DNA of 62,554 nucleotides, the filler included, from Stramenopiles sp. TOSAG23-6 (lineage: Eukaryota): assembly GCA_900128565.1 (NCBI GenBank). It is 21 parts of 21 records of this genome, joined end to end, with 100 filler letters (N's around TTAATTAATTAA, not from the genome) between each part and the next. Parts side by side here need not be neighbours in the genome. Positions count along the whole stretch, not along the records: positions 26,897 to 29,780 come from LT637766.1; 20 more parts are not named here. One strand, 5' to 3'. The notes under the pieces are model-generated. The model saw nothing but the letters and a program-made list of their open reading frames with translations, had not been told where the DNA came from and searched no databases. This document shows, piece after piece, positions 5,067-56,769 of this stretch. The translations under genes were made by a program, and so were the position numbers. How positions within the stretch are numbered: position 1 is the first letter of the stretch; every line of letters begins with the position of its first letter.

Positions 5067-5833
5067 TCAACGTACACTACATTGAGAATTTGGATCTCCA
5101 CTACTTGACCCACCACTATCATTTAACGCAACAGCAACAACTGCCTTGTGATGACCAAATATTGTGAAAAATATTTTTTTTTTGGTAAAAATCGTTAGGT
5201 ACAAAATTTCCTAGAAAACAAATATTCGAAATCGGTAAAAAAAATAATGATGAAAACATACTGTGTAATGTCTAACAACGACTCCTCGACGAACTTCCCA
5301 TAAGCGAGCACTAAAGTCAGACGATGCTGTAACTAAATATGAAGAATCGGCTGAAAATGCGCAATCCCAAATCCATTTTTCATTTATTGTTAAAAAATAT
5401 TTTTTCATTCAAATGATGATTTTGTTAAGTACAAATTTTTCAGGTACAATAAAAAAAAAAAAAATCGTTACAAAAAACTTTGGTACAAACACTCATTTTT
5501 GAAAACATACATGTACCGCAAGCTTTTTGTACATTGAAACTTTCAAATCGGAGCTATTTATTGTAGGGTTAGGGTTTGTTACTGTAGTCATTGTTTTTTT
5601 TTTATTTCTTTCTTGCGATGCTGCTGATGTGAGATTAGGGTTAGGGCTTTTTTTATCATTTGATGTTGGAGGTGTTGAAGGACGGAGTGTTGCATCTTCG
5701 ACTATTTCAGGTACCTCACTAGGTGAATTCATTGGCGTATTTTTTGAGAAAAATTCATCTTTTGTTAAATTCGTTTTGATATTTTCTAAACTCCAAATTT
5801 TTGCTGTATGATCTGAACTTGCTGTTGCAAGGT
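5067..5833 (-). CDS. LST8: TOR complex subunit LST8 (WD40), 3' part; exons 5833-5511, 5381-5262, 5156-5067
   Basis: Spliced product reads [14 protein letters not shown] ... [29 protein letters not shown] ... [17 protein letters not shown]. Confidence 0.88.
5157..5261 (-). other. Non-canonical family intron, GT...TT
   Basis: ACA|GTATGTTTT...TGTACCTAAC...TTCACAATATTT|GGT restores LST8 YTGHHKAV. Confidence 0.85.
5382..5510 (-). other. Non-canonical family intron, GT...AT
   Basis: CAT|GTATGT...TGTACTTAAC...ACAATAAAT|GAA restores LST8 H-E-K-W-I-W-D-C. Confidence 0.85.
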
Positions 5834-6113: not shown

Positions 6114-6692
6114 GGCAGCAAGGTTATGGACAGCTGGTTGGAACTTTTATGCTCCTCCTGAAACTGTCATTTTCCATTTATGGAGTCGAAGTTATCGTCC
6201 GTCATGGCGTCAATTGTTTTCAAAAGAAAGTGTTAAAGGCCGATTAATGTATATATGTTTTATTTTTTTTTTTTAACAAAAAATTCGATTTTTTTTTTTG
6301 TTTTTTTATAAAAATTCCGTACCTAACAAATTTTACAAAAAAAAAATATTTGTTTATGAATACATGATTTAGAAAAAAGAGCTCTACGAAATATAAAAAA
6401 ATATTTTGAACAATCCATAAAAACAAATAATGATAATGTTTCAGCACCTACCTTATTTAGTATGCGTAATTGTCAATTTCGTTCATTTTCTAAATATCAA
6501 GAGAAATGTGGTGTCAATTTTATGTCTAAACAAATAAATGAAAAGGCAAAGTATTCTTCTTACTTGGATACCTCGGAGAATTCAAATCATTCTAATGAGA
6601 GTATCTCCAAAAACACAGAAAAACAAATTCTTCATGTGGAAAATACACGAAATATTCTAAAAATAGTTCAAGACAAATATTTATCACAATGA
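6114..6692 (+). CDS. Skp1-hydroxyproline GlcNAc-transferase-like (Gnt1/GT60) protein, 3' part; exons 6114-6252 and 6366-6692
   Basis: Unlisted exon translates AARLWTAGWNFYAPPETVIFHLWSRSYRP, a GT60 family motif. It joins ORF 6462..6692 via intron 6253-6365. Confidence 0.7.
6253..6365 (+). other. Non-canonical family intron, AT...AT
   Basis: TAT|ATATGTTTT...CGTACCTAAC...GAATACAT|GAT keeps frame. The GT at 6249 gives an immediate stop. Confidence 0.7.
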
Positions 6693-7668: not shown

Positions 7669-8876
7669 ATGTTTGGTTGGGGAGGTAGTCAGCCTGCACC
7701 GGCTCAGCCATATCAGTATCAGCAAAACTCATCTGCAGTGGTAGCTGCACGTCAGGCGCAAATTGCGTCCATCCAACGTCAAGTGCCGGTTGCAAGACCT
7801 CGAGGCTCTGATTCTGTGTGGGCTGTGGGACTACGTCTTAGCACAGGACAAATTATTTCTTTGACAACGACTTTGCCTCCTGGTTTCCCACAAGCTGCTC
7901 CAACTATGCAAATTTCTGTCAAGTCGACACACCCTTGGATTGATAGTAGAATGTTTGTCACTGGGCATCCTCAGTTGCGTGTGTGGCAGCCACACTATGA
8001 CTTAGGACGAATTTTAAGTGAAGTTGTCAATGAATTTAGTGCCCGACCACCTCAACTTGTAGTTCCACCACCTGCGTATCCTGGGCAAGTCCAAGGTAAT
8101 GTTCCTTCACCTCCTATAAAACCGACATCTTTGACAAAGACTGCATCAATACGACACACACCATTACCTCCTATACCTTCTTCATTTCCAAAATTAAAAG
8201 ATCTTGAACTCAAGCAACTACAACAATTAAAGGAGAATGAAGAATATTTAGATGATTTCGTAAGTGGAATTAAATGCCTTGAAGAGTTTAAAAAAATGCT
8301 TGACGATTTAAAAACTGCTTCAGGTGAATCCGCACGACATGTACATTTTTTTTTACCAATTTCGAATTTATTTTTTTTTTTCATACGAAATTCCGTACCT
8401 AACAATTTTTTTTACTAAAAAAAATATTTTTTCACAATACAAAATCTTAAAAGTGCCGATGAAGTCGCCGCGTTGAAAGAAGAAGTGAATAATCATTCGG
8501 ATATTCTTAGAGTTAAAAAGTCAGAATATGAAGAAAAATGTAGTAAACAAAGTGAAGTTCTTCAACGATATACACCTGAAAATGTACGTTTTCAATTTCA
8601 GTTTTTTTTTTCATATTTTTTTTTCGTAGGAAATTTTGTACCTAACGATTTTTTTTGGTAAAAAAAAAAAAAAAAAAAAAAAATTTTTTCACAATAAATG
8701 TCCTACGAATTTTATCCCAAGGAGTAGATACACAAGATAATCTTTCGCGTGATATTGCTCAACAATTTGTTGATGGCGATTTGGAGTTACGTGAATTTGA
8801 AAAAAAATATCATAAAAGTAGGCAACTTTATCATTTCCGTAATGCAAAAATGGAAAGATTTTGTGCAACTCACAAT
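7669..8876 (+). CDS. VPS37: ESCRT-I subunit VPS37A-like (UEV plus Mod(r)); exons 7669-8340, 8443-8583, 8700->8876
   Basis: LPPGFPQAAP and HPWID UEV motifs, a Pro-rich linker, and C-terminal AQQFVDGDLELREFEKKYHKSRQLYHFRNAKME. Confidence 0.8.
8341..8442 (+). other. Non-canonical family intron, GT...AA
   Basis: CAT|GTACATTTT...CGTACCTAAC...TTCACAATACAA|AAT CTT gives ARHNL in frame. The intron contains no AG. Confidence 0.75.
8584..8699 (+). other. Non-canonical family intron, GT...AT
   Basis: AAT|GTACGTTTT...TGTACCTAAC...CACAATAAAT|GTC; PENVLRIL in frame. Confidence 0.8.
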
Positions 8877-11793: not shown

Positions 11794-11818
11794 CGCCGCG
11801 AACCGGGATCGAACCAGT

Positions 11819-11865
<47 letters not shown>
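11794..11865 (-). tRNA. tRNA-Phe(GAA), first base lost at the contig edge
   Basis: Reverse complement CCGCGATAGCTCAGTTGGGAGAGCGTCAGACTGAAGATCTGAAGGTCACTGGTTCGATCCCGGTTCGCGGCG; cloverleaf with GAA anticodon. Confidence 0.93.
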
Positions 11866-12020
11866 NNNNNNNNNNNNNNNNNNNNNNNNNNNNNNNNNNN
11901 NNNNNNNNNTTAATTAATTAANNNNNNNNNNNNNNNNNNNNNNNNNNNNNNNNNNNNNNNNNNNNCGTACGCAATTTTGTACCTAACGATTTTTTTTTGA
12001 AATATTTTTCCAAAATACAT

Positions 12021-14952: not shown

Positions 14953-17838
14953 AACCCAATTAGAGATCCGCCAAGTAGACCATTATCAGCAAATGGAAAT
15001 CCCATTCCAATTGGTAAACCAAATAAACCAAATACAAAAAATAAAAAAAATACAAAAAATAAAAAAAATACAAAAAATACAAAATGTCCAATGTTGATGT
15101 CAGTATTTACAAATCTTTCCATTTTAACTACGTCACTTCGACGACAACGAGCTAATATTGATTATATTGAAAGAAGTGCTCTGGCTTGTACGTTTTTTTT
15201 TAACCCTAACCCTAATGATTCTGTACCTCCACGTTTTTTTCTTTCAACGCTAACCCTAAACAAAATGTTGTACCTAACAAAAATTAACATTTCTGAAATA
15301 TTGTCTCGAAATTACAGGTAATCGAATGTCGATTACTGAAAGTCAAAAAGAGAGATATTGTTTACGTCGTAGACCAGGTCCAGAAGCATCGCCACTATTG
15401 ACAAAACTATATTATTGTGAAAAGAATATAAAATTAAAATATAGAGAAATGTTGAGACAAATTAAGATGGAGAGACGAAACAAGGGTCGGAAAAAAAAAA
15501 GAAGTATTATTCATTCGACTCGTAATTTTCATCAAAAGAAAGAAAAAAAAACATTGAAAGATTTCACAAAACGACAGAAAAAAACCTCTACAATTTCTAC
15601 ACATTTTAATAATTCTAAAACGTCTAAACACTCTACAATAAAACTAAAACAACAGCACAAACAGAACCAAAATGTTTTATATAGTGAGTCTAATAGTACT
15701 TCTAGTGGTAACAGTATTGAATGTAGTCATGTCAATTCGAATTCTTTTCAAGGTAGACATAGAGAAATTATATCAAGAACTACATCATTACTTAGTACAG
15801 GCAACACATCAAGTACTATTAAACATATAGAAAATACAATGACTGGTCCTAAAAGTATTTCAAGCAACACATCAAGTACTATTAAACATATAGAAAATAG
15901 AATGACTGGTCCTAAAAGTATTTCAAGTAGCAAATCAGGTACAATTAAACATATAGATCATTTTGAAAACAAAACAACACAGATAATAGAATCTACAAAT
16001 AAAGAATCAAAATGGATCATTGGTGATGTTTCAGTACAAAAGATATTAAGTGAAGGACAGACAGTGGATAAAAATGACATCATTGATTCTGTTCAAGACA
16101 AATTATCACTTGATAAAGACATCGAACGACCCATCTCTGTATGGGGTGGAAGAAGTGAAAACATGGCCGGTGTGATTATCGTTGGACCTGATTCTAATGA
16201 CTCCAATAGAGACATCATTCCACAAAATAATACTTATGCTTCTGCATACCCTCCAGGTATAGGTGCTATTGAAACAACAACTCATCACATATCAAATTCA
16301 ATTGATGAAACAAATATTGAAAAAGCAAAAGACGAAGCAGATAAAAATGCAGCATTTGCAGAACTTATTCAAAAGTCTAATAAAGGTATTGTATTAGCTA
16401 AATTTTGTACGGAGGAAGATCGGATAAATAATGAAATTTATCCTGAAGCACAGTATAGTGAGAGTGATCATTACAAATCTGATGTCTCAGATCGGTCAAA
16501 AATTATCAAAAAGAAAAAAAGAAAAAAAGGTAAACGAATTTCCAGATATAAAAGAAACAAAAGAAATGATCAAGTAAATAATATATATAATGAAAGAAAT
16601 GTAATGAATCAAAATAAATCAATTGAAGTCTCATTCAAATATGAACGAGATAAAACAGATAAAAACGAAACTTGGTCATTATCCAATCCTAGAATGACGG
16701 CAGTATCCAATTCAACAATGACGCAATCTGAGGATACTTTAGTCACTGATACCCTACATCCTAACCCTAACACTACTACGGTAGTCACGAAATCGGGAAC
16801 AAATCTATTAAAAGCATGGTTACATAAAGCTAAATCAAATTTGCAACAACAAGTAGCAGAAAAGCGAGATATAGGAAGATGTACGTTTTCAATACATTGA
16901 TTTTTTTTTTGTACATTTCATTTTTTTTTAAATTTCAAATTTATTTAAAAAAAAATGTTTTTTACAATATTTTTCACAATTTATGGTTGCGCTTGCTAGA
17001 ACGACGATTGGTTGAAAGTACAAGTACGTATAAAGTACTACGTCATTTAAAACATATCATTGCACGCTTTACAGCATTACCATCAAGAGAACAAAAACAA
17101 ATCAAATATCAATTGGATATGTTGAAAATAAAGAGTAATCCTAACCCTAATGAAAATCCTACCCATAATGAAATCAGTCATCAAAAAAAAAGTAAATTAT
17201 CGAGAGAAAGACAAAAATACAAAACGAAACGCCTCCAATTAAAACTTGTCAAAGCAAATGATAGAATGGTTCAATTTGAAAAACATCTATCAACATTGTC
17301 TGTATCTGTAGTAATAGAAGCAATATCTAGCATACAACAAAATCTTGAATACATGTACGTTTTCAATTTTTCAATGTTTCAATTTTAAGTTTTTTTTTTG
17401 TAGTAAATTTTGTACCTAACAAAAAAAACTTTTACCGAAAAAAAAATATTTCCCAAAAATACATAGGACAAATGTGTGCAGTTTTGGCCGCTGATTTAAC
17501 TCGTTGGAACAAAACTGATGATAATTATACAAACACACGAAATATGTCAATGATAAAGTTGATGGAAAGTGATAATAATAAGAATAATAAGAATAATAAG
17601 AATAATAAGAAAAAGCTGAAAACAAAACAAAAAAGCACCCAACAACGAAAATTGAAACAACGAATGTGTTGGCATTGTGGAATAAAACTGCCTTATACAA
17701 CTGGAAACTTTTGCGAATTGTGTGGTGTAGCCCTTCCACCGAGTGTTTCGTTTAATCGTGAATCATCCTTTGGTTCTCCACCTCCAAAACCATTTGGTCC
17801 TCCACCTCCAAAACCACCAAAACCACCAAAACCACCAA
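14953..17838 (+). CDS. Low-complexity hypothetical protein with C-terminal double-CxxC zinc ribbon (partial); introns 15188-15317 (GT-AG), 16881-16984 (GT-AT), 17355-17464 (GT-AT)
   Basis: ORFs 15091, 15326, 16879 and 17472 chain in frame after intron removal; CWHCG...FCELCG motif. Confidence 0.65.
17355..17464 (+). other. Non-canonical family intron, GT...AT
   Basis: AT|GTACGTTTT...AAAATACAT|A GGA CAA ATG. The AG 2 nt downstream would frameshift to a stop. Confidence 0.75.
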
Positions 17839-20800
17839 NNNNNNNNNNNNNNNNNNNNNNNNNNNNNNNNNNNNNNNNNNNNTTAATTAATTAANNNNNN
17901 NNNNNNNNNNNNNNNNNNNNNNNNNNNNNNNNNNNNNNAACCCAATTAGAGATCCGCCAAGTAGACCATTATCAGCAAATGGAAATCCCATTCCAATTGG
18001 TAAACCAAATAAACCAAATACAAAAAATAAAAAAAATACAAAAAATAAAAAAAATACAAAAAATACAAAATGTCCAATGTTGATGTCAGTATTTACAAAT
18101 CTTTCCATTTTAACTACGTCACTTCGACGACAACGAGCTAATATTGATTATATTGAAAGAAGTGCTCTGGCTTGTACGTTTTTTTTTAACCCTAACCCTA
18201 ATGATTCTGTACCTCCACGTTTTTTTCTTTCAACGCTAACCCTAAACAAAATGTTGTACCTAACAAAAATTAACATTTCTGAAATATTGTCTCGAAATTA
18301 CAGGTAATCGAATGTCGATTACTGAAAGTCAAAAAGAGAGATATTGTTTACGTCGTAGACCAGGTCCAGAAGCATCGCCACTATTGACAAAACTATATTA
18401 TTGTGAAAAGAATATAAAATTAAAATATAGAGAAATGTTGAGACAAATTAAGATGGAGAGACGAAACAAGGGTCGGAAAAAAAAAAGAAGTATTATTCAT
18501 TCGACTCGTAATTTTCATCAAAAGAAAGAAAAAAAAACATTGAAAGATTTCACAAAACGACAGAAAAAAACCTCTACAATTTCTACACATTTTAATAATT
18601 CTAAAACGTCTAAACACTCTACAATAAAACTAAAACAACAGCACAAACAGAACCAAAATGTTTTATATAGTGAGTCTAATAGTACTTCTAGTGGTAACAG
18701 TATTGAATGTAGTCATGTCAATTCGAATTCTTTTCAAGGTAGACATAGAGAAATTATATCAAGAACTACATCATTACTTAGTACAGGCAACACATCAAGT
18801 ACTATTAAACATATAGAAAATACAATGACTGGTCCTAAAAGTATTTCAAGCAACACATCAAGTACTATTAAACATATAGAAAATAGAATGACTGGTCCTA
18901 AAAGTATTTCAAGTAGCAAATCAGGTACAATTAAACATATAGATCATTTTGAAAACAAAACAACACAGATAATAGAATCTACAAATAAAGAATCAAAATG
19001 GATCATTGGTGATGTTTCAGTACAAAAGATATTAAGTGAAGGACAGACAGTGGATAAAAATGACATCATTGATTCTGTTCAAGACAAATTATCACTTGAT
19101 AAAGACATCGAACGACCCATCTCTGTATGGGGTGGAAGAAGTGAAAACATGGCCGGTGTGATTATCGTTGGACCTGATTCTAATGACTCCAATAGAGACA
19201 TCATTCCACAAAATAATACTTATGCTTCTGCATACCCTCCAGGTATAGGTGCTATTGAAACAACAACTCATCACATATCAAATTCAATTGATGAAACAAA
19301 TATTGAAAAAGCAAAAGACGAAGCAGATAAAAATGCAGCATTTGCAGAACTTATTCAAAAGTCTAATAAAGGTATTGTATTAGCTAAATTTTGTACGGAG
19401 GAAGATCGGATAAATAATGAAATTTATCCTGAAGCACAGTATAGTGAGAGTGATCATTACAAATCTGATGTCTCAGATCGGTCAAAAATTATCAAAAAGA
19501 AAAAAAGAAAAAAAGGTAAACGAATTTCCAGATATAAAAGAAACAAAAGAAATGATCAAGTAAATAATATATATAATGAAAGAAATGTAATGAATCAAAA
19601 TAAATCAATTGAAGTCTCATTCAAATATGAACGAGATAAAACAGATAAAAACGAAACTTGGTCATTATCCAATCCTAGAATGACGGCAGTATCCAATTCA
19701 ACAATGACGCAATCTGAGGATACTTTAGTCACTGATACCCTACATCCTAACCCTAACACTACTACGGTAGTCACGAAATCGGGAACAAATCTATTAAAAG
19801 CATGGTTACATAAAGCTAAATCAAATTTGCAACAACAAGTAGCAGAAAAGCGAGATATAGGAAGATGTACGTTTTCAATACATTGATTTTTTTTTTGTAC
19901 ATTTCATTTTTTTTTAAATTTCAAATTTATTTAAAAAAAAATGTTTTTTACAATATTTTTCACAATTTATGGTTGCGCTTGCTAGAACGACGATTGGTTG
20001 AAAGTACAAGTACGTATAAAGTACTACGTCATTTAAAACATATCATTGCACGCTTTACAGCATTACCATCAAGAGAACAAAAACAAATCAAATATCAATT
20101 GGATATGTTGAAAATAAAGAGTAATCCTAACCCTAATGAAAATCCTACCCATAATGAAATCAGTCATCAAAAAAAAAGTAAATTATCGAGAGAAAGACAA
20201 AAATACAAAACGAAACGCCTCCAATTAAAACTTGTCAAAGCAAATGATAGAATGGTTCAATTTGAAAAACATCTATCAACATTGTCTGTATCTGTAGTAA
20301 TAGAAGCAATATCTAGCATACAACAAAATCTTGAATACATGTACGTTTTCAATTTTTCAATGTTTCAATTTTAAGTTTTTTTTTTGTAGTAAATTTTGTA
20401 CCTAACAAAAAAAACTTTTACCGAAAAAAAAATATTTCCCAAAAATACATAGGACAAATGTGTGCAGTTTTGGCCGCTGATTTAACTCGTTGGAACAAAA
20501 CTGATGATAATTATACAAACACACGAAATATGTCAATGATAAAGTTGATGGAAAGTGATAATAATAAGAATAATAAGAATAATAAGAATAATAAGAAAAA
20601 GCTGAAAACAAAACAAAAAAGCACCCAACAACGAAAATTGAAACAACGAATGTGTTGGCATTGTGGAATAAAACTGCCTTATACAACTGGAAACTTTTGC
20701 GAATTGTGTGGTGTAGCCCTTCCACCGAGTGTTTCGTTTAATCGTGAATCATCCTTTGGTTCTCCACCTCCAAAACCATTTGGTCCTCCACCTCCAAAAC

Positions 20801-23800
20801 CACCAAAACCACCAAAACCACCAANNNNNNNNNNNNNNNNNNNNNNNNNNNNNNNNNNNNNNNNNNNNTTAATTAATTAANNNNNNNNNNNNNNNNNNNN
20901 NNNNNNNNNNNNNNNNNNNNNNNNAACCCAATTAGAGATCCGCCAAGTAGACCATTATCAGCAAATGGAAATCCCATTCCAATTGGTAAACCAAATAAAC
21001 CAAATACAAAAAATAAAAAAAATACAAAAAATAAAAAAAATACAAAAAATACAAAATGTCCAATGTTGATGTCAGTATTTACAAATCTTTCCATTTTAAC
21101 TACGTCACTTCGACGACAACGAGCTAATATTGATTATATTGAAAGAAGTGCTCTGGCTTGTACGTTTTTTTTTAACCCTAACCCTAATGATTCTGTACCT
21201 CCACGTTTTTTTCTTTCAACGCTAACCCTAAACAAAATGTTGTACCTAACAAAAATTAACATTTCTGAAATATTGTCTCGAAATTACAGGTAATCGAATG
21301 TCGATTACTGAAAGTCAAAAAGAGAGATATTGTTTACGTCGTAGACCAGGTCCAGAAGCATCGCCACTATTGACAAAACTATATTATTGTGAAAAGAATA
21401 TAAAATTAAAATATAGAGAAATGTTGAGACAAATTAAGATGGAGAGACGAAACAAGGGTCGGAAAAAAAAAAGAAGTATTATTCATTCGACTCGTAATTT
21501 TCATCAAAAGAAAGAAAAAAAAACATTGAAAGATTTCACAAAACGACAGAAAAAAACCTCTACAATTTCTACACATTTTAATAATTCTAAAACGTCTAAA
21601 CACTCTACAATAAAACTAAAACAACAGCACAAACAGAACCAAAATGTTTTATATAGTGAGTCTAATAGTACTTCTAGTGGTAACAGTATTGAATGTAGTC
21701 ATGTCAATTCGAATTCTTTTCAAGGTAGACATAGAGAAATTATATCAAGAACTACATCATTACTTAGTACAGGCAACACATCAAGTACTATTAAACATAT
21801 AGAAAATACAATGACTGGTCCTAAAAGTATTTCAAGCAACACATCAAGTACTATTAAACATATAGAAAATAGAATGACTGGTCCTAAAAGTATTTCAAGT
21901 AGCAAATCAGGTACAATTAAACATATAGATCATTTTGAAAACAAAACAACACAGATAATAGAATCTACAAATAAAGAATCAAAATGGATCATTGGTGATG
22001 TTTCAGTACAAAAGATATTAAGTGAAGGACAGACAGTGGATAAAAATGACATCATTGATTCTGTTCAAGACAAATTATCACTTGATAAAGACATCGAACG
22101 ACCCATCTCTGTATGGGGTGGAAGAAGTGAAAACATGGCCGGTGTGATTATCGTTGGACCTGATTCTAATGACTCCAATAGAGACATCATTCCACAAAAT
22201 AATACTTATGCTTCTGCATACCCTCCAGGTATAGGTGCTATTGAAACAACAACTCATCACATATCAAATTCAATTGATGAAACAAATATTGAAAAAGCAA
22301 AAGACGAAGCAGATAAAAATGCAGCATTTGCAGAACTTATTCAAAAGTCTAATAAAGGTATTGTATTAGCTAAATTTTGTACGGAGGAAGATCGGATAAA
22401 TAATGAAATTTATCCTGAAGCACAGTATAGTGAGAGTGATCATTACAAATCTGATGTCTCAGATCGGTCAAAAATTATCAAAAAGAAAAAAAGAAAAAAA
22501 GGTAAACGAATTTCCAGATATAAAAGAAACAAAAGAAATGATCAAGTAAATAATATATATAATGAAAGAAATGTAATGAATCAAAATAAATCAATTGAAG
22601 TCTCATTCAAATATGAACGAGATAAAACAGATAAAAACGAAACTTGGTCATTATCCAATCCTAGAATGACGGCAGTATCCAATTCAACAATGACGCAATC
22701 TGAGGATACTTTAGTCACTGATACCCTACATCCTAACCCTAACACTACTACGGTAGTCACGAAATCGGGAACAAATCTATTAAAAGCATGGTTACATAAA
22801 GCTAAATCAAATTTGCAACAACAAGTAGCAGAAAAGCGAGATATAGGAAGATGTACGTTTTCAATACATTGATTTTTTTTTTGTACATTTCATTTTTTTT
22901 TAAATTTCAAATTTATTTAAAAAAAAATGTTTTTTACAATATTTTTCACAATTTATGGTTGCGCTTGCTAGAACGACGATTGGTTGAAAGTACAAGTACG
23001 TATAAAGTACTACGTCATTTAAAACATATCATTGCACGCTTTACAGCATTACCATCAAGAGAACAAAAACAAATCAAATATCAATTGGATATGTTGAAAA
23101 TAAAGAGTAATCCTAACCCTAATGAAAATCCTACCCATAATGAAATCAGTCATCAAAAAAAAAGTAAATTATCGAGAGAAAGACAAAAATACAAAACGAA
23201 ACGCCTCCAATTAAAACTTGTCAAAGCAAATGATAGAATGGTTCAATTTGAAAAACATCTATCAACATTGTCTGTATCTGTAGTAATAGAAGCAATATCT
23301 AGCATACAACAAAATCTTGAATACATGTACGTTTTCAATTTTTCAATGTTTCAATTTTAAGTTTTTTTTTTGTAGTAAATTTTGTACCTAACAAAAAAAA
23401 CTTTTACCGAAAAAAAAATATTTCCCAAAAATACATAGGACAAATGTGTGCAGTTTTGGCCGCTGATTTAACTCGTTGGAACAAAACTGATGATAATTAT
23501 ACAAACACACGAAATATGTCAATGATAAAGTTGATGGAAAGTGATAATAATAAGAATAATAAGAATAATAAGAATAATAAGAAAAAGCTGAAAACAAAAC
23601 AAAAAAGCACCCAACAACGAAAATTGAAACAACGAATGTGTTGGCATTGTGGAATAAAACTGCCTTATACAACTGGAAACTTTTGCGAATTGTGTGGTGT
23701 AGCCCTTCCACCGAGTGTTTCGTTTAATCGTGAATCATCCTTTGGTTCTCCACCTCCAAAACCATTTGGTCCTCCACCTCCAAAACCACCAAAACCACCA

Positions 23801-26800
23801 AAACCACCAANNNNNNNNNNNNNNNNNNNNNNNNNNNNNNNNNNNNNNNNNNNNTTAATTAATTAANNNNNNNNNNNNNNNNNNNNNNNNNNNNNNNNNN
23901 NNNNNNNNNNAACCCAATTAGAGATCCGCCAAGTAGACCATTATCAGCAAATGGAAATCCCATTCCAATTGGTAAACCAAATAAACCAAATACAAAAAAT
24001 AAAAAAAATACAAAAAATAAAAAAAATACAAAAAATACAAAATGTCCAATGTTGATGTCAGTATTTACAAATCTTTCCATTTTAACTACGTCACTTCGAC
24101 GACAACGAGCTAATATTGATTATATTGAAAGAAGTGCTCTGGCTTGTACGTTTTTTTTTAACCCTAACCCTAATGATTCTGTACCTCCACGTTTTTTTCT
24201 TTCAACGCTAACCCTAAACAAAATGTTGTACCTAACAAAAATTAACATTTCTGAAATATTGTCTCGAAATTACAGGTAATCGAATGTCGATTACTGAAAG
24301 TCAAAAAGAGAGATATTGTTTACGTCGTAGACCAGGTCCAGAAGCATCGCCACTATTGACAAAACTATATTATTGTGAAAAGAATATAAAATTAAAATAT
24401 AGAGAAATGTTGAGACAAATTAAGATGGAGAGACGAAACAAGGGTCGGAAAAAAAAAAGAAGTATTATTCATTCGACTCGTAATTTTCATCAAAAGAAAG
24501 AAAAAAAAACATTGAAAGATTTCACAAAACGACAGAAAAAAACCTCTACAATTTCTACACATTTTAATAATTCTAAAACGTCTAAACACTCTACAATAAA
24601 ACTAAAACAACAGCACAAACAGAACCAAAATGTTTTATATAGTGAGTCTAATAGTACTTCTAGTGGTAACAGTATTGAATGTAGTCATGTCAATTCGAAT
24701 TCTTTTCAAGGTAGACATAGAGAAATTATATCAAGAACTACATCATTACTTAGTACAGGCAACACATCAAGTACTATTAAACATATAGAAAATACAATGA
24801 CTGGTCCTAAAAGTATTTCAAGCAACACATCAAGTACTATTAAACATATAGAAAATAGAATGACTGGTCCTAAAAGTATTTCAAGTAGCAAATCAGGTAC
24901 AATTAAACATATAGATCATTTTGAAAACAAAACAACACAGATAATAGAATCTACAAATAAAGAATCAAAATGGATCATTGGTGATGTTTCAGTACAAAAG
25001 ATATTAAGTGAAGGACAGACAGTGGATAAAAATGACATCATTGATTCTGTTCAAGACAAATTATCACTTGATAAAGACATCGAACGACCCATCTCTGTAT
25101 GGGGTGGAAGAAGTGAAAACATGGCCGGTGTGATTATCGTTGGACCTGATTCTAATGACTCCAATAGAGACATCATTCCACAAAATAATACTTATGCTTC
25201 TGCATACCCTCCAGGTATAGGTGCTATTGAAACAACAACTCATCACATATCAAATTCAATTGATGAAACAAATATTGAAAAAGCAAAAGACGAAGCAGAT
25301 AAAAATGCAGCATTTGCAGAACTTATTCAAAAGTCTAATAAAGGTATTGTATTAGCTAAATTTTGTACGGAGGAAGATCGGATAAATAATGAAATTTATC
25401 CTGAAGCACAGTATAGTGAGAGTGATCATTACAAATCTGATGTCTCAGATCGGTCAAAAATTATCAAAAAGAAAAAAAGAAAAAAAGGTAAACGAATTTC
25501 CAGATATAAAAGAAACAAAAGAAATGATCAAGTAAATAATATATATAATGAAAGAAATGTAATGAATCAAAATAAATCAATTGAAGTCTCATTCAAATAT
25601 GAACGAGATAAAACAGATAAAAACGAAACTTGGTCATTATCCAATCCTAGAATGACGGCAGTATCCAATTCAACAATGACGCAATCTGAGGATACTTTAG
25701 TCACTGATACCCTACATCCTAACCCTAACACTACTACGGTAGTCACGAAATCGGGAACAAATCTATTAAAAGCATGGTTACATAAAGCTAAATCAAATTT
25801 GCAACAACAAGTAGCAGAAAAGCGAGATATAGGAAGATGTACGTTTTCAATACATTGATTTTTTTTTTGTACATTTCATTTTTTTTTAAATTTCAAATTT
25901 ATTTAAAAAAAAATGTTTTTTACAATATTTTTCACAATTTATGGTTGCGCTTGCTAGAACGACGATTGGTTGAAAGTACAAGTACGTATAAAGTACTACG
26001 TCATTTAAAACATATCATTGCACGCTTTACAGCATTACCATCAAGAGAACAAAAACAAATCAAATATCAATTGGATATGTTGAAAATAAAGAGTAATCCT
26101 AACCCTAATGAAAATCCTACCCATAATGAAATCAGTCATCAAAAAAAAAGTAAATTATCGAGAGAAAGACAAAAATACAAAACGAAACGCCTCCAATTAA
26201 AACTTGTCAAAGCAAATGATAGAATGGTTCAATTTGAAAAACATCTATCAACATTGTCTGTATCTGTAGTAATAGAAGCAATATCTAGCATACAACAAAA
26301 TCTTGAATACATGTACGTTTTCAATTTTTCAATGTTTCAATTTTAAGTTTTTTTTTTGTAGTAAATTTTGTACCTAACAAAAAAAACTTTTACCGAAAAA
26401 AAAATATTTCCCAAAAATACATAGGACAAATGTGTGCAGTTTTGGCCGCTGATTTAACTCGTTGGAACAAAACTGATGATAATTATACAAACACACGAAA
26501 TATGTCAATGATAAAGTTGATGGAAAGTGATAATAATAAGAATAATAAGAATAATAAGAATAATAAGAAAAAGCTGAAAACAAAACAAAAAAGCACCCAA
26601 CAACGAAAATTGAAACAACGAATGTGTTGGCATTGTGGAATAAAACTGCCTTATACAACTGGAAACTTTTGCGAATTGTGTGGTGTAGCCCTTCCACCGA
26701 GTGTTTCGTTTAATCGTGAATCATCCTTTGGTTCTCCACCTCCAAAACCATTTGGTCCTCCACCTCCAAAACCACCAAAACCACCAAAACCACCAANNNN

Positions 26801-26896: not shown

Positions 26897-27749
26897 AAAA
26901 ATATTTAGTAAATCATAAAACTGACCATGTATTTTGAAAAATATTTTTTTTTTTTGTTAGGTACAAAATTTCGTACGAAAAAAATTAAATTTGAAATGAA
27001 TTGTGAAAACATACGTGAGTGTCGCCACAAACCGTAAACTTTGGAGCAACGCCATCTTCAGCAGGTAAAGCGTGTTCCAGAAGAGTGGGTAAGCTTTTAA
27101 GTAGTTCCAACATTTGTAACAGTATTTGAACAATATACTTTTTGTGTAATCCTTTCTGGCTGCGAAAACGTTCCGTCAAGTCTTTCACAAACTCAGGAGT
27201 TAGTTGACCCGTCTTGGAAAGTCTAGGACCATCGTAACTTGAAGGAACTTCTATTAAATCAACGTCAATTGTTTCTGATACTTTCGGAGCATCTTTTACT
27301 TCTACAGCCTTCTCAAATCTTTCTCTTAAAACAGCCTTCTTACAAGCTGCGACTTTTCTCTTAGCATCTTTGCTTTTTGGCTTTACTTTTGCTACAGCTT
27401 CAAAGCAACGAAGTGCTTGTTTCATTTTACCTAAGCCAATATAGGCGGAACCTCTTCGGTAAAATGCTTTAATATACGTTTTGTCTAAAGAAATTGCTCT
27501 ATTCGCATCTGTCATTGCTGCACCAAATGATTCCATTTTTAAATGCACGGCAGCTCTATTACCTAACAGCGCTGCTGAAGGTGAACAATCGACACCTTTT
27601 GTATAGAACTTTAGAGCAGCCAAATATGTACCTTTCTTGAATTCTACGTTACCTTTATCTTTCCAGTACTTGGCTTGCTCCTCCATTGTACCGATTGATA
27701 CTTCTATATCGCTAGATGTTATTCTTTCAATGTCCATATTTCCTACCAT
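26897..27749 (-). CDS. PPP5: Ser/Thr protein phosphatase 5 (TPR plus PPP catalytic domain), 3'-partial
   Basis: Three TPRs followed by TVCGDTH|GQFYDLLNIF after removing intron 26927-27014. Confidence 0.93.
26927..27014 (-). other. Non-canonical family intron, GT...AT, inside the invariant GDxHGQ motif
   Basis: CAC|GTATGTTTTC...TTTCGTACGAAATTTTGTACCTAAC...TTTTCAAAATACAT|GGT CAG; 88 nt containing no AG. Confidence 0.9.
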
Positions 27750-28063
27750 TAAACAATTATTTATACAACTTTGATAGTAAGTAGAGGTGTTTCAACATTA
27801 CAAGTCATATGGATGGTTTGTGTGGCGGGATGATTGGCCAATGGCGATGATTGCGTTCATTAACTGACTTGAATTGTTTTTGTTACCGGGTATTCTATTA
27901 TCAAGCTTGTCAAAAATTACCGGTCGTTTGCTTCTCGCTGTCGCAGAGCGTCGCTCTTTCTGTGTGACATCGAAAAAATCTCTGTTCTCTGTTGCCCGCA
28001 ATTTTATTTCTAGTACTGAAGGAGGCGAATAAGCTAATCTAAAGGCCAAACGTCTACAAGCAC

Positions 28064-29685
28064 ATGTCAGATCAAAGGGAGTCTTCTTCATATTCACAAT
28101 CAAGGAACTGGTCCCAGAATAATGGCCAGTGGTCGCGTATGTCATCTCAGACATGGGAGCATTCACCAATCCAGAAACAGCAGCAGGCGTCACAATTCAA
28201 CCAGCAACAACAGTCGCCGGTGAGAGAGTCATCTTACCATCAGCCACAAAAACCTCAACAGTTGAACCAGCGTAACTACCAACATCAATCGCAGCAACAG
28301 CAGATACCCCCTTCACTAGCTGCGTTGTTTGCCTCTGGAAGTACTACTGGCTCTGTTTTTTTGGGACAGCAACAAGACGAAAAGAAGAAGCAAGTAGTAG
28401 TTGCTTTGGAAGAAAGTAGAAAACGACAAGAAATTATACAACACCAACTCATTGCACATGGTAACCAGGTTAAGCATTTCAGAGCTCAACTCGATCAAAT
28501 GCCGAGTGATGCAAATCCAGAGTTAGTTGGAAATATGCGAATGAAGTTAGCTGCGATGGAGACTCACCAGGGTCAAGGCACTGAGGCTTTGCGTAAAGAA
28601 GTTGCCCGTGGTACATCTTTACGTAACCAGCTCGAACTTTTATCTCGTCCTCTCAACAAAAATAGTTATTCTCAACAGCAACAACAACAACAAAATTCAG
28701 ATTTTTCACTCTCTACCAGGTCTATTATACCAGGAATGCAACATTCTACACAACACAACAACTACAATATACCTCCAAAACCTGCGCAACATAGACAACG
28801 TCGACGTTTATTTGAACGGACACCATCATTGGGTAGCACAGGAGACATATCCAGAGGTATACAAAGTTCCCTTGATACGTCTGACATTTCTTTGAACTCT
28901 CAATCCTTGTCAACTACTAACCAGAACTCTTTAAATGGCATTAGTAGGCAGCTTTTATCTGCTCTACCATCAGTATCTCAATCGTCTAATAATACAATTG
29001 GTATGAAACCTCTTAATGAACCACATCATAACTTAAATACACACGTTGGTGATTCATCTTTAATAGAAAGAAATAACACGAATCTGCAAAGTAGAAATCC
29101 AAATTCTGTATTGTCAGGTCTTGATTTTATTCAACAGCATAGACATGTTATGAATAACCCAATTCGTAACCAACTTAGCCACAATATAAGAGGTGACCCT
29201 AGACAAATGCCAACTGTACCAAAGATAGAAGCATCTTCTAATGTGACTTTGGTGAACGCTCCTGGTCTTGGTACTATCAATGTATGTGTAGCCTTAGATA
29301 GAGAGGGAAAGAAGCCTCGGAAAATAAGTAAGCATCGCCGAGAAAATGTCGCAGAAGATGTTCAGAACTACGAAGATCCACGGGGAGAAGAATGTATTTG
29401 TTCACCAAACACAAATCTCATTGTCACGTGGGAGATGGAGGAACACGTAAGTTTTATTATTCATTGTATTTCAAATTAATTTTTTTTTTTTAAATAATTG
29501 TACCTGACATTTTTTTCTAACCCATTTTGAATGTATTTTTTCACAATATATGCTTGTCACCGGAAAAACTGGATTGGATTGTACAGAATATCTCAACGCG
29601 AACCAAGTAGATATATGACTACTAGATATACTGATAATGGTGACTGGCGATGGAGTGACACAACTGATGAATCTGGAAGGAGAAT
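28064..29685 (+). CDS. Gln-rich protein with possible SKICH-like domain, 3'-partial; intron 29447-29551 (GT...AT)
   Basis: 471-aa ORF continues in frame as ACHRKNWIGLYRISQREPSRY, similar to the SKICH DWIG motif; divergent from PP5. Confidence 0.6.
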
Positions 29686-29956
29686 GTACCTTTTCATCAT
29701 TCATTTCAAAAGAAAAAATATTTCGTACCAAATTCCGTATCTAACAATTTTTTTTTTTTTTTTTTTTTTTTATTTTTTTTNNNNNNNNNNNNNNNNNNNN
29801 NNNNNNNNNNNNNNNNNNNNNNNNTTAATTAATTAANNNNNNNNNNNNNNNNNNNNNNNNNNNNNNNNNNNNNNNNNNNNAAAAAATTGTTAGGTACAAA
29901 ATTTCGTACGAAAAAAAAATAAATTCGATTTTTTTTTTTTTTTAAATAAAACATTC

Positions 29957-31592: not shown

Positions 31593-32764
31593 ATGAAAAT
31601 ATTTCACGTGATGTCAAGAAATACTTCTAATGATGTAAAACATGTGAACTCTTCAGAAGCATTGCGTGTCACAGGTATATTCCGACGGCGTACTCCAATC
31701 TTCCCTTCCGATGGTGAAGGTGTTGAAGTTATGGTTGAAATGGAGGCAGGTGCAGAAGGTATATTGATTATGGAACAAGAACCAAGTTTTCGAAAACAAT
31801 TGCTTGGCTCTACGTCCCAATTAATCCTTTGGGAGGATATTGTTCGAATCTGTGTAGACTTTGACAACGGGTGTTTCATTCTTAGTATTCATTGGGCTGA
31901 GAAGATCCCCTCAAAGTTATTTGGTTTGTATCAGTCGAGTAGCCGGAAATGCAACAGTATTTTTTTGTGCATGTCCCAGATAAAGCAGAAAATAAGACAA
32001 CCAATGAGTATTGACGACGTTGTAGTATGGTTACGTGTTATTTGGTATCGTAAGGCCGAATGTACTCTTACATTTTTACGACAAAAAAAAGAAAAAGCAA
32101 AATTATCTGAAGTTAGTTATTCACCATTGTGTTTAAGTCTTGGTATTGGTAGAGATATTACACCAATTCAGGAAAAACAAATTAAGACTGCAGTGGCTAC
32201 TGAAATTAAAGCGTACGTGCATACAGTAAGAGATTATTGTACAATACCAGCACAAAAAACATTTTGTGGAAAATCTTCAAGTATTGCGGAGTTTTTTTAT
32301 AGTGAAAAATTCTCGTGTAAGTACAAACAAAATGGTGCTCTACGCTTACTCGTCTTTATAAATCCTGTCTCTGGTTCGGGTCATGCACAATCAGCCTATA
32401 ATAAATATGTTGCACCTATTTTTAGCCATGCCGGTATTGATACAAATATTATAATTACAAAAGATCAAGGTCATGCCTTGACACATATGCAAAATTTGAG
32501 TGATTCAGATATTCATTCTTATGATGGGGTGACTATTATGGGAGGAGATGGATTGGTCTGGGAGGTCATAAATATACGTTTTCATTATACATTCTGTCGT
32601 AAAACAATATTTCATAGTACATTTTGTACCTAACAAAAAATATTAAAAAAAAAAAAAATATTTTAAAAAATATTTTAAAAAATATTTCATAGTACATTTT
32701 GTACCTAACAAATTAAAAAAAAAAAAAAAAAAATATTTTTTACGATGCATGGTATATTGAATAA
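31593..32764 (+). CDS. Sphingosine/ceramide kinase (DAGK catalytic domain), 3'-partial
   Basis: LLVFINPVSGSG, GGDG and EVIN|GIL after intron 32574-32750. Confidence 0.88.
32574..32750 (+). other. Non-canonical family intron, AT...AT, with duplicated branch module
   Basis: AAT|ATACGTTTT...2x(ATAGTACATTTTGTACCTAAC)...TTACGATGCAT|GGT restores conserved GGDG..EVING. Confidence 0.85.
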
Positions 32765-32864: not shown

Positions 32865-33725
32865 AAAATTTTTTTAAAAAAAAAAAAAAAAAAAAAATAA
32901 TTAATAACATTTTTTTTTTTTTGTAAAATTCGTGCTTTTTTCACAATACATGAAAGGATGCCGAAGAAATTTTATCATGAGGAAGATATTAAATAAACTA
33001 AATTATTGCGATAAAGAAGGAAAAAATGCTTATCCAACATGTATGTTTATTTTTTTTCAATTTTTTAACTAAATTGTTTTTCCTACGAAATTTCGTACCT
33101 AACGTTTTTTTTTTCATATTTCGTGTTTATTTCACAATACATATATAGGCTTGCAATCAGATTATCCATTTACTCGAGAACACGATTTGCGATCAGTAGC
33201 TAAAGAATATGTATGCTTTATTGTTTTTTGATTTTTTATCTATATTTTTTTTTTTTTGATTTTTGAAAAAAAAAATTTCATACCTAACAAATTTTTCAAA
33301 AAAAAAAAAAACTAACCCTAATCCTAATCACAATATATGCTAGTGGTAGTCTTTGTGGCACATCGGGAAAAGGATTGGGAAAATTTGGTGCAGATGGTCT
33401 TTCCATTCTTGCTAAAGCTCTCAAGCTCAATGGAAATCTTCTTTCTCTAACACCTGTATGATTTATTTTTCTTCNACTTTTTTTTCAATTTCGAATTTAT
33501 TTATTTTTTTTTGATTTTTGAAAAAAAAAAAAAATTTCGTACCTAACAAAAAAACAATATTTTTTCACAATATATGATTTGAGTGATGGAATGGTTGAAT
33601 TGAGCAGTTGTAAAATCACAGGTCAATATTATGGAACAACATACAAATCTTTATTTGCTTCTATGGCAATTAACCACGGTAAGTTATATCACATTTTTTG
33701 TTATTGTTAGGTACAGAATTTTATA

Positions 33726-33759
<34 letters not shown>

Positions 33760-35691
33760 TATCACAACAAAGCAGTAAACAGTTACCACAGACATAAACG
33801 AAATTCTTTTTTATTTTTTTTATTAATGACTCACAATTTCATTTTTTTTAACATCATTTTATACTAAACAGCTGATGGGACATGCCAGAATGGAGATAAC
33901 AACAGTCAACCTTCACAAATGCCTTGTATGTGGTTCAAAACTACATCAAAGGTTAAGTATTTTGTTCCTTATATCGAACATAAATATATCAAAAAAGAAG
34001 AAAAATCACATGCAACAGAAGGCATTCACGGGGCTTTCGAACCAAAACTTCGAGTGGTAGTGGAGTTTAATAAAGAAAGAAACGAAACACTAGGAGAATT
34101 TTGTTTTAAGCAACACAAAAAGGGAATGTACATTTTCATTATGATTTTTTTTTTTTTTTTTTGATACGAAATTTCATACCTAACAAAATATTTTGATTTT
34201 TTTTTGAAATATTTTTGTACAATATATTACATATCAAAAATTATCATCTACATCTGATCGAAAGGGCTTCAAACACCGCCGAGGTGACATATTTCCAGAT
34301 AAAAAAATTTCACTGTACAAACCTCCTTCGACAAATGTTATTAAACAATGGTGGAATCCAAAGCGAAAATTTGAAATGCTTAAAAAAACGATAAAAGCAA
34401 ATTCCGTGAGAATATGTATAGATCATAAGACGTCCACTGTCATTAACCCTAGATTATGTCCACATAGAAGCAAAGGAAGTGAAAAAAAGGCGGATTGTGA
34501 CAATTATGGATATTGCATTGATATTGAAGCAACCGACAACATCCACAAATCCAGAATAAAACACAAATCCACTAAACCTTCTAAAGGTTTTATTACTGGG
34601 GACTTGTACACATTTTGCTACAAAACTTATGATGCAATGTTTAATACTGTTATGCTCATGGAGAACCAAGGTATACATCTGTTAAGCAATGAAAAATTTC
34701 TTCCAGACAACAAGAATTTTGGAGAGTTTTGCATGTTAGAAACGGAGAAGGCTAAAAAAGAAAATAGCAAATATTTTAATTGGTTTAGGAGGTCTGAATG
34801 GAACCTAGTTCGCAAAAGTGAAGTAACCATAAAATCTGTCCGACAGAAATCTAACATGCTCACAATAGAAGAATCGGAAAAGAAGTCAGACAATAAAACG
34901 TCCTATGATATACTAAAATCAAAACAATGTAGCTTTCTTCATCCGGGTAATCTTAACTGTCAAGTTCAACACTACCCAAAAAAAGGGACTTGTAAAAATT
35001 TTCAATATTGCTTTGATATGATGTTGAAGCAACAAGGAGAGGCAAAAAAAAAGAAAGGGTACTTATTTTGCTTTGAGACCTTCAAAAATGCAAGTCATGT
35101 ACAATTGAAACTGGAAAGAATGGGTGTTGATGAAACTGAAAGACTTACAACCAAGAGATTGGAATCTCGCAATAAATTTCATTCAAAATCTACTGCAATC
35201 AACATACATGCCTATGAAAAGGACATCAAAATTGCTACATTGGCAGCAGAACATCTTCGCAATAACAAGGAAGATTTGCTTCAAGACAAATCTTACAATA
35301 AAGAAAATTCTCGGGATACAAAAAAATTAGTGGAAACAGCTGAAGATACAATCACTTCATTATTGGAATTCTTGAAAAATCATAAACCAAAGTTTCCAGA
35401 GTTTACAGAGAGTAAGCAAGATGAACTGGAACGAAAAATACAGAGTATCACGAATTTGTCTGTGCTGACCTCTATTGGAAAATGCAACACTGTGATAAAT
35501 TCTGACAAAGCTGAGATTCACAATAAGAAGGTACCGTGTGAAGTGTTTCTAAGCGAATATCTGAAAAAAAACGATGCAGCAGCACGAGAAGAAGAAGATG
35601 ATGATGATGCTGCTGCTGCTGATGATGAAAAAGAAGAAAAAAAAGAAGAAAAAAAAGAAGAAAAAAAAGAAGAAGAAGAAGAAAAAAAACC

Positions 35692-38952: not shown

Positions 38953-39734
38953 ATAATCCACCAACACTCTTGCCATGTTTGGACGTGAAGCATATTTTTG
39001 TAAATCAAGTCGATATTTTGTAGGACATATAGAACACTTTCAATTTGTTAGGTACAACATAAAATCATTTTTTTTATGGAAAAAAGTACAAAAAAAAAAA
39101 AAAAATGATGACAATGTTGTACTGTGATTTTTTTTTTAAATTCGTTAGGTACAACATTTCGTACGAAAAAAAAAAGAAATTGATGACAATTTACGTTTAC
39201 ATTGACGAACTGTCCATTAGGATCCGACTGAGCAATGGATGCCGTAGCTAAACGTATCTGACGCCCAAGTGAAGTTACCGGGCGTGATGTACCTGGTCGA
39301 TTACCTCGAAAAGCATCTTTGACTGAAAGAGTACCACCGTTGTTTACGTGACGCGTTGACATTCCAGGGCGAATGAAACCAGAGACTGGACGTCCAGACG
39401 CCGTCAAAGGACGGATGCTTTGATTTGAAGTGCCTGAAGTCTCATGTGTACCAGTCTTTCTATGTGATAATGAAGTTCCTGGTCTTGGCATTGAGTGTAC
39501 AGCATTTTCGTCTAAAAGAAGATCACCAACACCTTCCTCTTCCATATCTGTATCATCAACCCACGTCTTTAATGTCAAAGCCCGACATTTCATGAACCAG
39601 ACAGCTTTGTCTAACGGATTTTTAACTAATATTTTTGTACATATGTCGATACATTCATCATAATGCCTACGACGTAACTTTGATGCTGCAAGATATAATG
39701 GATCAACCTGTGAAAACACACTCAATGATGGCAT
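38953..39734 (-). CDS. TTC8: BBSome subunit BBS8/TTC8, 3'-partial; intron 39013-39194 (GT...AT); next intron starts with AT at 38952
   Basis: DPLYLAASKLRRR...EEEGVGDLLLDENA..PRPGTSL..SGRPVSGF..RPVTS..RLATAS..FVNVN|RLDLQKYA. Confidence 0.92.
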
Positions 39735-50814: not shown

Positions 50815-52117
50815 ATCCTCATCCGCACTCTGGGCTCTATTCTGTTTATCTTCCACATCACTAGGACATGGTGATGGAGCTCTACTGTCTTCTCCAGTGC
50901 GGCCAGCAAGATCAAAACTACTTGTAGAAGTACAGTGAAAAAATAATATGTATTGTGAAAAAATATTTTTTTTGTAAAATTTGTTAGGTACCAAATTTCG
51001 TACGAAAAAATAAATAAATTCGAAATTGAAAAAAAAATAAAACGTATATTCGATTCAATCCTCGATTGAAAAAAAAATAGTTAAACGACCATAGGCAAGG
51101 AATACCACAATGATGGCTCAGAGGATCTTGTTCCATGTCAGCTAGATAACGATATACCTCGCATTCTTTAACACCTATTGCATCATCAATAGCCTTCCAG
51201 AGTTTAGGCATGTATCGTAAAAAATATTCTTTTTTTTTTANTAAAAATCGTTAAGTACAAATTCTTTTTTTTTTCTACGACAAAAACAATTTAGGTAAAA
51301 AATTGATGTTGAAAACGTACATGAATTCGCTGTTTCGATTAACCAGTGCTAACTTTTGCATTTGGTTGTTAATGTCAGAACATGCAATTTGATATCCAGA
51401 AATTTTCTCAAAGTTATCTGAAGTAAGGCATGAAAAGTCATAATCAAGATTTTCAAAAGTTGCATTTAAGCACTGTACAAGATAAGCAAGAGTTTTATGA
51501 GTGCTGGGTAACGACATGGGTCCTAGTGACGACTCATTTATTTTGCGGAAATATGTTACATTCGAGATTTGTTAGGTATGAAATTTTTTATGAAAAATAA
51601 ATAAATTTGAGGTGATGAAAACATACACTTTGAGTTTCTTCTGGAGGTACTTCTCCTGTCTCCCGTTTGTACATTTCTTGACGATCCTTTTCCTCACTTG
51701 CTTCACGAACATATTGCTTCCGAAGTTTCTTCAAGAGTTTTTTATCCTCGCCTGTAATTTTAATATGAAAATAAGTAAGAAATTGTTACTACATTGTGTC
51801 TCACTAGTGCGCTACAAAAAGAGATGAAAATGTGGTATTGAACCGAGAAGTTCAAAAAGTGTTCCCGTTGGAACTAATAGGATGGGTTGAATGATACACA
51901 GTCGCATAAATAACGAGAGCGGTACCATTAATGAATAATTCATCAAATAGAAGAATCAAGAATCTTGGAAAAGAAAAGAAAGTACGAAGAATAATTACTT
52001 ACCTGCTGCTTTACATGAGAACGCCTCTGCTTGCCCGTTCCATACTTCGTTGCCAACGATACAATCCTGTAAATACGTCGTGGCCCACGCCAATGTAGGA
52101 TTCTGTAAATACTTCAT
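50815..52117 (-). CDS. MAF1: RNA polymerase III repressor MAF1, 3'-partial; canonical intron 51752-52002; family introns 51536-51626, 51210-51320, 50948-51047 and one starting at 50814
   Basis: MKYLQ..EAFSCKAAG|EDKKL, LGPMS..KTLAYLVQCLNATF..DYDFS, LWKAID..ECEVY, LWSFNYFFFNRGLNRI|LFF. Confidence 0.92.
50948..51047 (-). other. Non-canonical family intron, AT...AT
   Basis: CGA AT|ATACGTTTT...TTCGTACGAAATTTGGTACCTAAC...TTCACAATACAT|A TTA TTT restores the MAF1 motif RILFF. Confidence 0.87.
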
Positions 52118-56297: not shown

Positions 56298-56331
<34 letters not shown>

Positions 56332-56574
56332 TACAAAATATTTTTTTCGTACGTAATTTTGTACCTAACCAAAAAAAACAAAAAAACATTTTTTTTTAAT
56401 TTTCACAATATAGATGATGCACACGAAATATTTATTCAAGCGAATGATGCACTTCGATATATTTCCTCCTTAGATATTGTTCATTGCGATATAAAACCTG
56501 AAAATTTACTCATCACTGCACGAAATAAAAATGGAAAAATAAAATTGGCTGATTTTGGATGTGCTTTTATAGAA
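55516..56574 (+). CDS. CAMK-like Ser/Thr protein kinase, partial, probably mis-assembled (catalytic exon duplicated, subdomains III-V missing)
   Basis: LGTGAYGTV and AVKII; HCDIKPEN and DFG occur twice. Confidence 0.75.
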
Positions 56575-56769
56575 GTATGTTTTTTTTTTTTTTTTTTTTT
56601 TTTTNNNNNNNNNNNNNNNNNNNNNNNNNNNNNNNNNNNNNNNNNNNNTTAATTAATTAANNNNNNNNNNNNNNNNNNNNNNNNNNNNNNNNNNNNNNNN
56701 NNNNAAAAAAAAAAAAAAATTTGTAAAAAAAAAAAAAAAAATTCTGACTTTTGATGAAAACCAACATGC

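Follow-up and report, generated by a model that had tools for sequence, protein, structure and literature searches.

The window analyzed here, a stretch of 62,554 nucleotides (filler included) from Stramenopiles sp. TOSAG23-6 (GenBank assembly GCA_900128565.1), carries in a gene for the phosphatase PP5 an 88-nt insert that appears to be a real, well-supported intron without a terminal AG. The insert very probably belongs to a transposon-derived family of introns that would be removed by the major (U2) spliceosome, through GUAYGU and UACCUAAC, with the cut placed three bases past a conserved 3′ box irrespective of the final dinucleotide. Few signals in eukaryotic gene expression are as conserved as the terminal AG, and the dozens of look-alike introns point to a splicing machinery with a changed end rule.

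The PP5 insert and the motif that it interrupts

The gene was recognized by a domain search, in which exon 1 matched the PPP5 domain (E 1.8e-29) and TPRs, and it bears the GDxHG motif; the remaining catalytic domain lies beyond the contig end. The insert, on the minus strand (27014 to 26927), starts with GTATGT, ends with AAAATACAT and contains no AG, and it is flanked by CAC, which encodes the His of GDTH, and by GGT CAG TTT TAT GAT TTA CTA AAT ATT TTT (GQFYDLLNIF). An AG-free insert of this length between the H and G codons was what the original prediction had described, together with a first AG located 6 nt into exon 2, whose use would delete GQ; both descriptions are accurate, as this AG ends at 26921 and its use would yield GDTH-FYDLL. 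Reading straight through the insert leads to a stop after nine codons, and the EukProt model of this gene (P0061) runs into the insert and stops there. The lack of AG alone is weak evidence, because 6.6% of shuffles of the same composition are also free of it.

The motif around the insert is far more constrained. The Gly after GDxH, which had been expected to be essentially invariant, is present in 136 of the 137 motif-bearing homologues among 150 PP5-like representatives and in 33/33 among 53 further matches (13 of the 150 and 20 of the 53 proteins, without the motif region, are omitted from these counts). The spacer from H to FYD is two residues long in 133/133 and 33/33 homologues, and solved PP5 chains align without gaps at the H|GQ site. 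When each of the 13 GT or GC donors located in the insert or in the 60 nt upstream of it was combined with the sole downstream AG (26921), GDxHGQ was destroyed in every case; no canonical GT-AG or GC-AG intron fits the insert. Six cut registers (−4 to +1: TC-AT, CA-TA, AC-AC, CG-CA, GT-AT and TA-TG) give DTHGQF, and none of them is canonical, in agreement with the proposal of an acceptor at ...AATACAT or in an equivalent register. These tests show that exact removal of the 88 nt is the only way of keeping GDxHGQ.

To call this insert the cleanest proof case was nevertheless an overstatement, since no contig of three RNA runs reaches its junction, the contig ends at an N linker 30 nt later, leaving 10 codons of exon 2 visible, and the register is silent in the protein. 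It had also been suggested that the His codon, CAC or CAT in the mRNA, would reveal the cut; it would separate registers 0 and +1 from −1 and beyond, but would resolve the cut no more finely.

A repeated family of probable introns

The window is made of 21 pieces of about 2.88 kb, with 48,731 bases of unique sequence after the removal of duplicate contigs. A 2886-nt contig is present four times identically (14953-26796) and a 2883-nt contig twice (32865-38730), which reflects assembly redundancy and not tandem repeats. A 12-mer of the branch-like box of the insert occurs 49 times in the window, duplicate contigs included, versus 0.06 expected (0/100 shuffles). Curation gave 42 complete family copies of 84-177 nt in the 48.7 kb of unique sequence. 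This set leaves out the redundant contigs (three duplicates in one case, one in the other), six copies whose ends are uncertain, the copies at 12535 and 39194, and the copy at 56294, whose 3′ half is common with that at 55989 (a probable misassembly) and which was used in the frame test described below.

The 5′ end of the family is conventional. Donors start with GT in 38 of the 42 copies and with AT in four, the most frequent being GTATGT (18) and GTACGT (9), with G at +5 in 37/42, T at +6 in 38/42 and U or C at +4 in 41/42. GTATGT agrees with the yeast donor consensus and corresponds to a U2-type donor (GURAGU/GUAUGU). A box of the TACCTAAC type, which represents a CURAY-type branch motif upstream of the 3′ end and has a putative branch role, is found in 40/42 copies, mostly about 30-45 nt before the end. 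It is followed by a 3′ box with the consensus ATATTTTTCCACAATA and then by three bases. The terminal dinucleotides are AT in 30 copies, AG in five, TT in four, AA in two and GT in one, while position −3 is C in 25, T in 14, A in three and G in none. An AT end describes the PP5 copy and most of the family, but it is not a strict rule, as 12 copies end otherwise. Agreement with the 3′ box is poorer in the copies that end in AG (10.8 versus 13.2 of 16; n=5 versus 30), as would be expected if older copies drift towards the canonical end.

The copies have diverged (mean column identity of 54%), and all 19 that occupy genes with a strand established by family matches or homologues lie in the sense orientation. 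Introners are recognized by numerous similar copies that sit in unrelated genes, in the sense orientation and at lineage-specific positions, and the family displays all of these features. AT directly precedes the donor in 32/42 copies, versus a background of 10%, and the ends form short terminal inverted repeats of 3-4 bp, GTA(T)...(A)TAC. Matches to the family core motif numbered zero in viral contigs and zero in prokaryote genomes, and no transposase was seen.

Several copies depart from the common plan. The TACCTAAC box is missing at 16881-16984 (+) and 58517-58672 (+), with donor, 3′ box and frame kept, and branch boxes are duplicated internally at 32574-32750 (+), 39013-39194 (−) and 48259-48426 (−), which suggests slippage or nested insertion. 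The AT...AT copies are those at 13486-13582 (+), 6253-6365 (+), 32574-32750 (+) and 50948-51047 (−), three of them uniquely favoured by the frame test. Many contigs break within family copies, and the family probably drives the fragmentation of the assembly. A kinase gene at 55989-56604 shows, downstream of the next donor, a second copy of one family intron's 3′ half together with the exon behind it, which is probably an assembly error at the repeat.

Reading frames at other copies

In a frame test of 21 copies, with ends chosen automatically without the last three bases, the cut defined by the motifs was the sole one to produce the longest open frame in 18, tied in three and lost in none; for 22 hand-curated copies, it had 16 wins, two ties and four losses. 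Removing family copies gives open reading frames (ORFs) of 496, 520, 732 and 847 residues over three to five junctions. The register can be read at the LST8 intron at 5157-5261, where shifting the cut by −2 or −3 gives I or F in place of the residues of a close relative (P0214), which reads Y-T-G-H-H-K, so that an AT-AC-like register is excluded at this site. The use of its in-frame AG at +12 would remove GHHK, and the spliced LST8 product is identical to P0214 across both junctions. The PP5 insert is a good case for exact removal, and this LST8 intron fixes the register better.

Among the 37 copies that do not end in AG, an in-frame AG is absent within 15 nt in 26 and within −30..+45 in 19. 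An AG lies between the branch box and the end in 10/33 copies (omitting three AG rows for copy 51320 whose distances referred to a wrong box), and 9/11 such AGs would shift the frame, including 4/5 of the T-rich TAGs found 10-13 nt past the branch-like A in five similar, non-independent copies. Since most intervening AGs would shift the frame, the intron end seems to track the 3′ box and not the first AG. At the same time, the ordinary intron at 33679-33871, located in a gene with four family introns, shows that AG ends still function.

The positions of these introns, of the parts of PP5 and of other family introns are collected in Table 1. The TPR gene listed there is presumably TTC8/BBS8-like. 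Some observations concern mixed or reversed forms: the ordinary intron at 33679-33871 (+) contains part of the family core in reverse, an exon near 13680 includes a stretch that resembles the reversed core, and the core, when reversed, reads TTAG|GTAC, a ready-made acceptor plus donor. A hybrid intron at 12535-12718 (+) has GTAAGT as its donor and a 3′ box of the family type that ends in TAT. An Rfam scan of the window returned only a tRNA gene (11794-11866, −) and no small nuclear RNA, and the Pfam matches Tox-ODYAM1 and PRRSV_Env, below the cut-off, were taken as noise.

Table 1. Features of the PP5 locus and other introns in the window.
Feature	Position	Strand	Basis
Predicted non-canonical intron of PP5, 88 nt, GT...AT in the preferred register; copy of the repeated family	26927..27014	−	motif removal, register and canonical-splice tests
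5′ splice site GTATGT, commonest family donor (18/42)	27009..27014	−	family alignment
TACCTAAC box resembling a branch point, the putative branch A (26957) lying 30 nt from the end of the intron	26956..26963	−	motif; branch use predicted
Conserved 3′ box (T-run, CAAAATA) and terminal CAT	26927..26945	−	family comparison
PP5 exon 1 (TPR repeats, PPP5 region, end ...VCGDTH); transcribed part 27358-27703	27015..27737	−	domain search; polyA run X7, 346/346 identical
Start of PP5 exon 2 (GQFYDLLNIF), cut off at contig end; first AG ends at 26921	26897..26926	−	sequence
LST8 family intron GT...TT, whose removal yields RHYT^GHHKAV, as in close relative P0214	5157..5261	−	frame test, relative comparison
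Family intron GT...AT in LST8; in-frame AG none within −30..+45	5382..5510	−	frame test, relative comparison
Family intron GT...AT in VPS37 (Mod_r) gene; Pfam profile gapless across the junction	8584..8699	+	frame test, Pfam
Family intron GT...AT in Maf1	51210..51320	−	frame test, ORF, Pfam
Maf1 sibling intron GT...AT	51536..51626	−	frame test
Maf1 sibling intron AT...AT	50948..51047	−	frame test
Degenerate family intron GT...AT in TPR gene	39013..39194	−	ORF reconstruction
Ordinary GTAAGT...TACTAAACAG intron, non-family, in a gene with four family introns	33679..33871	+	ORF reconstruction

The PP5 gene, its host and its transcription

The closest named homologues of the PP5 protein are stramenopile PP5s. 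In a single-gene tree, it groups with two other proteins (100/100) outside the oomycete-ochrophyte clade, the tree being otherwise unresolved, and its branch length is normal. Among public runs, those that cover the PP5 contig best include seawater metagenomes, and the host may be a marine, stramenopile-like protist. A polyA library (X7) covers 27358-27703 only, where 346/346 bases of exon 1 are identical, and the 4/4 differences in an independent DNA run are synonymous. Because of this transcription, these synonymous differences and the normal branch length, the gene looks functional.

Weighing the evidence

Several results count against the reading of the insert as a spliced, transposon-derived intron. 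In the three of 12 RNA runs compared with 26897-29780 (X5, X6 and X7), no contig spans the PP5 junction (X5 and X6 have no coverage of unique PP5 sequence), which is why the splicing of PP5 is something we infer. A junction probe had a single match among JGI metagenome contigs, an unrelated genomic PP5 (L001) that has no intron at the H|G site, and two PP5 protein searches returned no near-identical protein reading through the junction, the unspliced ORF being the only match at 100%. An in-frame AG lies within 15 nt in 11 of the 37 non-AG copies (and within −30..+45 in 18/37). The conservation of the motifs is partly circular, as the same motifs were used to find the copies, and related copies are not independent. 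The duplication of flanks is in only modest excess (27 pairwise versus 23.2 in shuffles, p 0.019), the end repeats show no covariation, and the fold of the PP5 insert is not more stable than those of shuffles (z +0.79); because of these last three results, the terminal repeats seem to be a remnant and not a functional hairpin.

Four other explanations can be set against these data. The insert could be removed exactly from the RNA by other means, such as a transformed minor (U12) spliceosome, a register shifted to AC-AC in PP5 and to AT-AC in most of the family, or a hairpin-guided process like that of euglenids. GT and AT starts with loose ends (GT-AT, AT-AT) are indeed traits of U12 introns in Physarum, as far as the available text of that report goes (10.1101/2020.10.12.336362), AT|GT...AC AT| permits an AT-AC reading in 27/42 copies, and the family ends form short inverted repeats. 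However, the U12 donor [GA]TATCCTT is absent, with C at +5 in 0/42 copies and at +6 in 1/42, and the family does not combine such a donor with a TTCCTT[GA]AC branch. The −2 register gives a wrong residue at LST8 5157-5261, and a hairpin finds neither a stable fold nor covarying ends, so that we regard removal by such means as unlikely. The use of the AG located 6 nt into exon 2, or retention of the insert, in a dead PP5 whose function is provided by another copy, would agree with this AG being in frame and preceded by a T-rich stretch and with model P0061 reading into the insert and stopping. Yet GQ is deleted in 0/166 homologues, exon 1 is transcribed and varies only synonymously, and LST8, VPS37 and Maf1 would each require the same ad hoc explanation, with 19/37 copies having no nearby in-frame AG; this explanation is very unlikely.

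Even less probable is that the copies are not introns but sequences removed from DNA, like the internal eliminated sequences of ciliates, or polymorphic insertions, as a short direct repeat (AT) at both ends and a very high copy number might suggest. The summed depth of the independent DNA run (X2) over the insert core is about 66,800 versus 11, a value that suggests very many copies and is not a copy number. Nonetheless, X2 contains both boundaries of the PP5 insert, in two contigs (26897-26955 and 26978-27891), and no joint spanning it; an insert-free PP5 allele was not found in JGI contigs, and the strict sense orientation and the donor and branch-like motifs are those of introns. An assembly or sequencing error that changed AG to AT is scarcely credible. 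The assembly breaks up at these repeats and, besides duplicated contigs, contains one chimeric join, and the X2 contig 26897-26955 differs by two letters whose places were not located, so that the terminal T of the insert lacks separate confirmation, but 30/42 copies end in AT, at unrelated loci.

A proposed mechanism

If the insert is spliced as a U2-type intron, GUAYGU would be read by the major spliceosome and branching would take place at the A of UACCUAAC. The 3′ site would be defined by its distance from the box AUAUUUUUYCAMAAUA (three bases downstream) and not by scanning for AG, probably via altered U2AF or second-step factors. After GT-to-AT excision, the PP5 mRNA would read GAC ACT CAC GGT CAG. 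The family is probably of transposon origin and may have arisen from an element like a miniature inverted-repeat transposable element (MITE), with GTA...TAC ends and inserting at AT with a 2-bp target, each intron being the element plus one copy of the duplicated AT. During splicing, the first and last G of an intron, G(+1) and G(−1), contact each other; with no G at the last position, this contact would be lost and +1 could drift to A, as in 4/42 copies.

On balance, we favour a broader proposal, in which the major spliceosome of this presumably free-living marine protist has been re-tuned: most 3′ sites would be read by position from the 16-base box that a single invading element carries, the final dinucleotide would be nearly free and a T-rich AG 10-13 nt past the branch would be bypassed, while old GT-AG introns still splice. 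If true, splicing at a 3′ AT would have an origin independent of that in tunicates, with the donor left canonical. A system in which donor and branch are kept and AG is dropped would isolate the choice of the 3′ site and the tolerance of transposons as introns, and it would be open to testing by minigenes and with the organism's own U2AF and second-step factors. Gene finders fail on such genomes, as when the PP5 model stops in the intron, and the gene catalogues of the lineage are probably truncated.

Comparison with known systems

Searches for GT-AT and other non-canonical introns of stramenopiles and protists yielded no account of this system in the literature covered, which excludes supplements and most subscription papers, and the data of a 2025 introner survey could list the family. 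In the available text of this survey, supplements apart, only AG and AC appear as usual 3′ sites and the words stramenopile and MAST are absent; the word "splice" is likewise absent from the available text of PMC5778133 and 10.64898/2026.04.17.719054. The comparisons below rest on the portions of the cited papers that were available.

The introns of Amoebophrya and euglenids share with this family non-GT-AG ends, and their terminal inverted repeats and target duplications (PMC11282704) may have counterparts in the short end repeats and the putative AT duplication of the family, but here there are a conventional donor and branch-like signals and no stable pairing of the ends. The expanded set of U12 introns in Physarum polycephalum, where non-canonical ends make up 0.8% of introns, is similar in its proposed transposon origin with a 2-bp target and in its rare GT-AT/AT-AT forms; in contrast, the donor in Physarum is [GA]TATCYTT and the branch, TTTGA, lies 9-12 nt before the end, and both signals are missing here (10.1101/2020.10.12.336362).

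The family would work like the non-canonical introns of Fritillaria and like introners that co-opt an acceptor from the target duplication. As in Micromonas and others, there are many similar copies in unrelated genes (PMC11282704, PMC12130899, PMC3879977). In introners, the donor comes with the element and the acceptor is provided by the duplicated target (PMC11282704), and the IE-B and IE-D of Micromonas (25 and 6 copies) end as GT-TG (PMC11282704, PMC12130899, PMC3879977). The co-opted end is, however, AG in the Micromonas model, whereas here it is mostly AT in what is the dominant intron type, and the present copies are diverged.

In Fritillaria, non-canonical introns are transposon-derived and removed by a U2-type spliceosome, canonical introns are a minority, and AT is the commonest 3′ end, with 34% and 44% of introns in F. 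borealis and F. pellucida, respectively (PMC13326754). The likeness includes AT as the commonest 3′ end, the persistence of canonical introns and a YAY triplet often found before the donor and at the intron end, here in 22/42 and 27/42 copies (PMC13326754). A U at +4 has been linked to reduced U6 methylation (PMC13326754), and in this respect the U or C found at +4 in 41/42 copies is a lead only. Splicing of the Fritillaria type is further marked by a duplicated, divergent U2AF and by altered m6A in snRNAs. Nevertheless, the donors of F. borealis are mostly AG (AG/AC, AG/AT), unlike the strong GTAYGT, the branch-like box and the one recognizable family seen here in a protist host, and a duplication of U2AF is shown in Fritillaria (PMC13326754).
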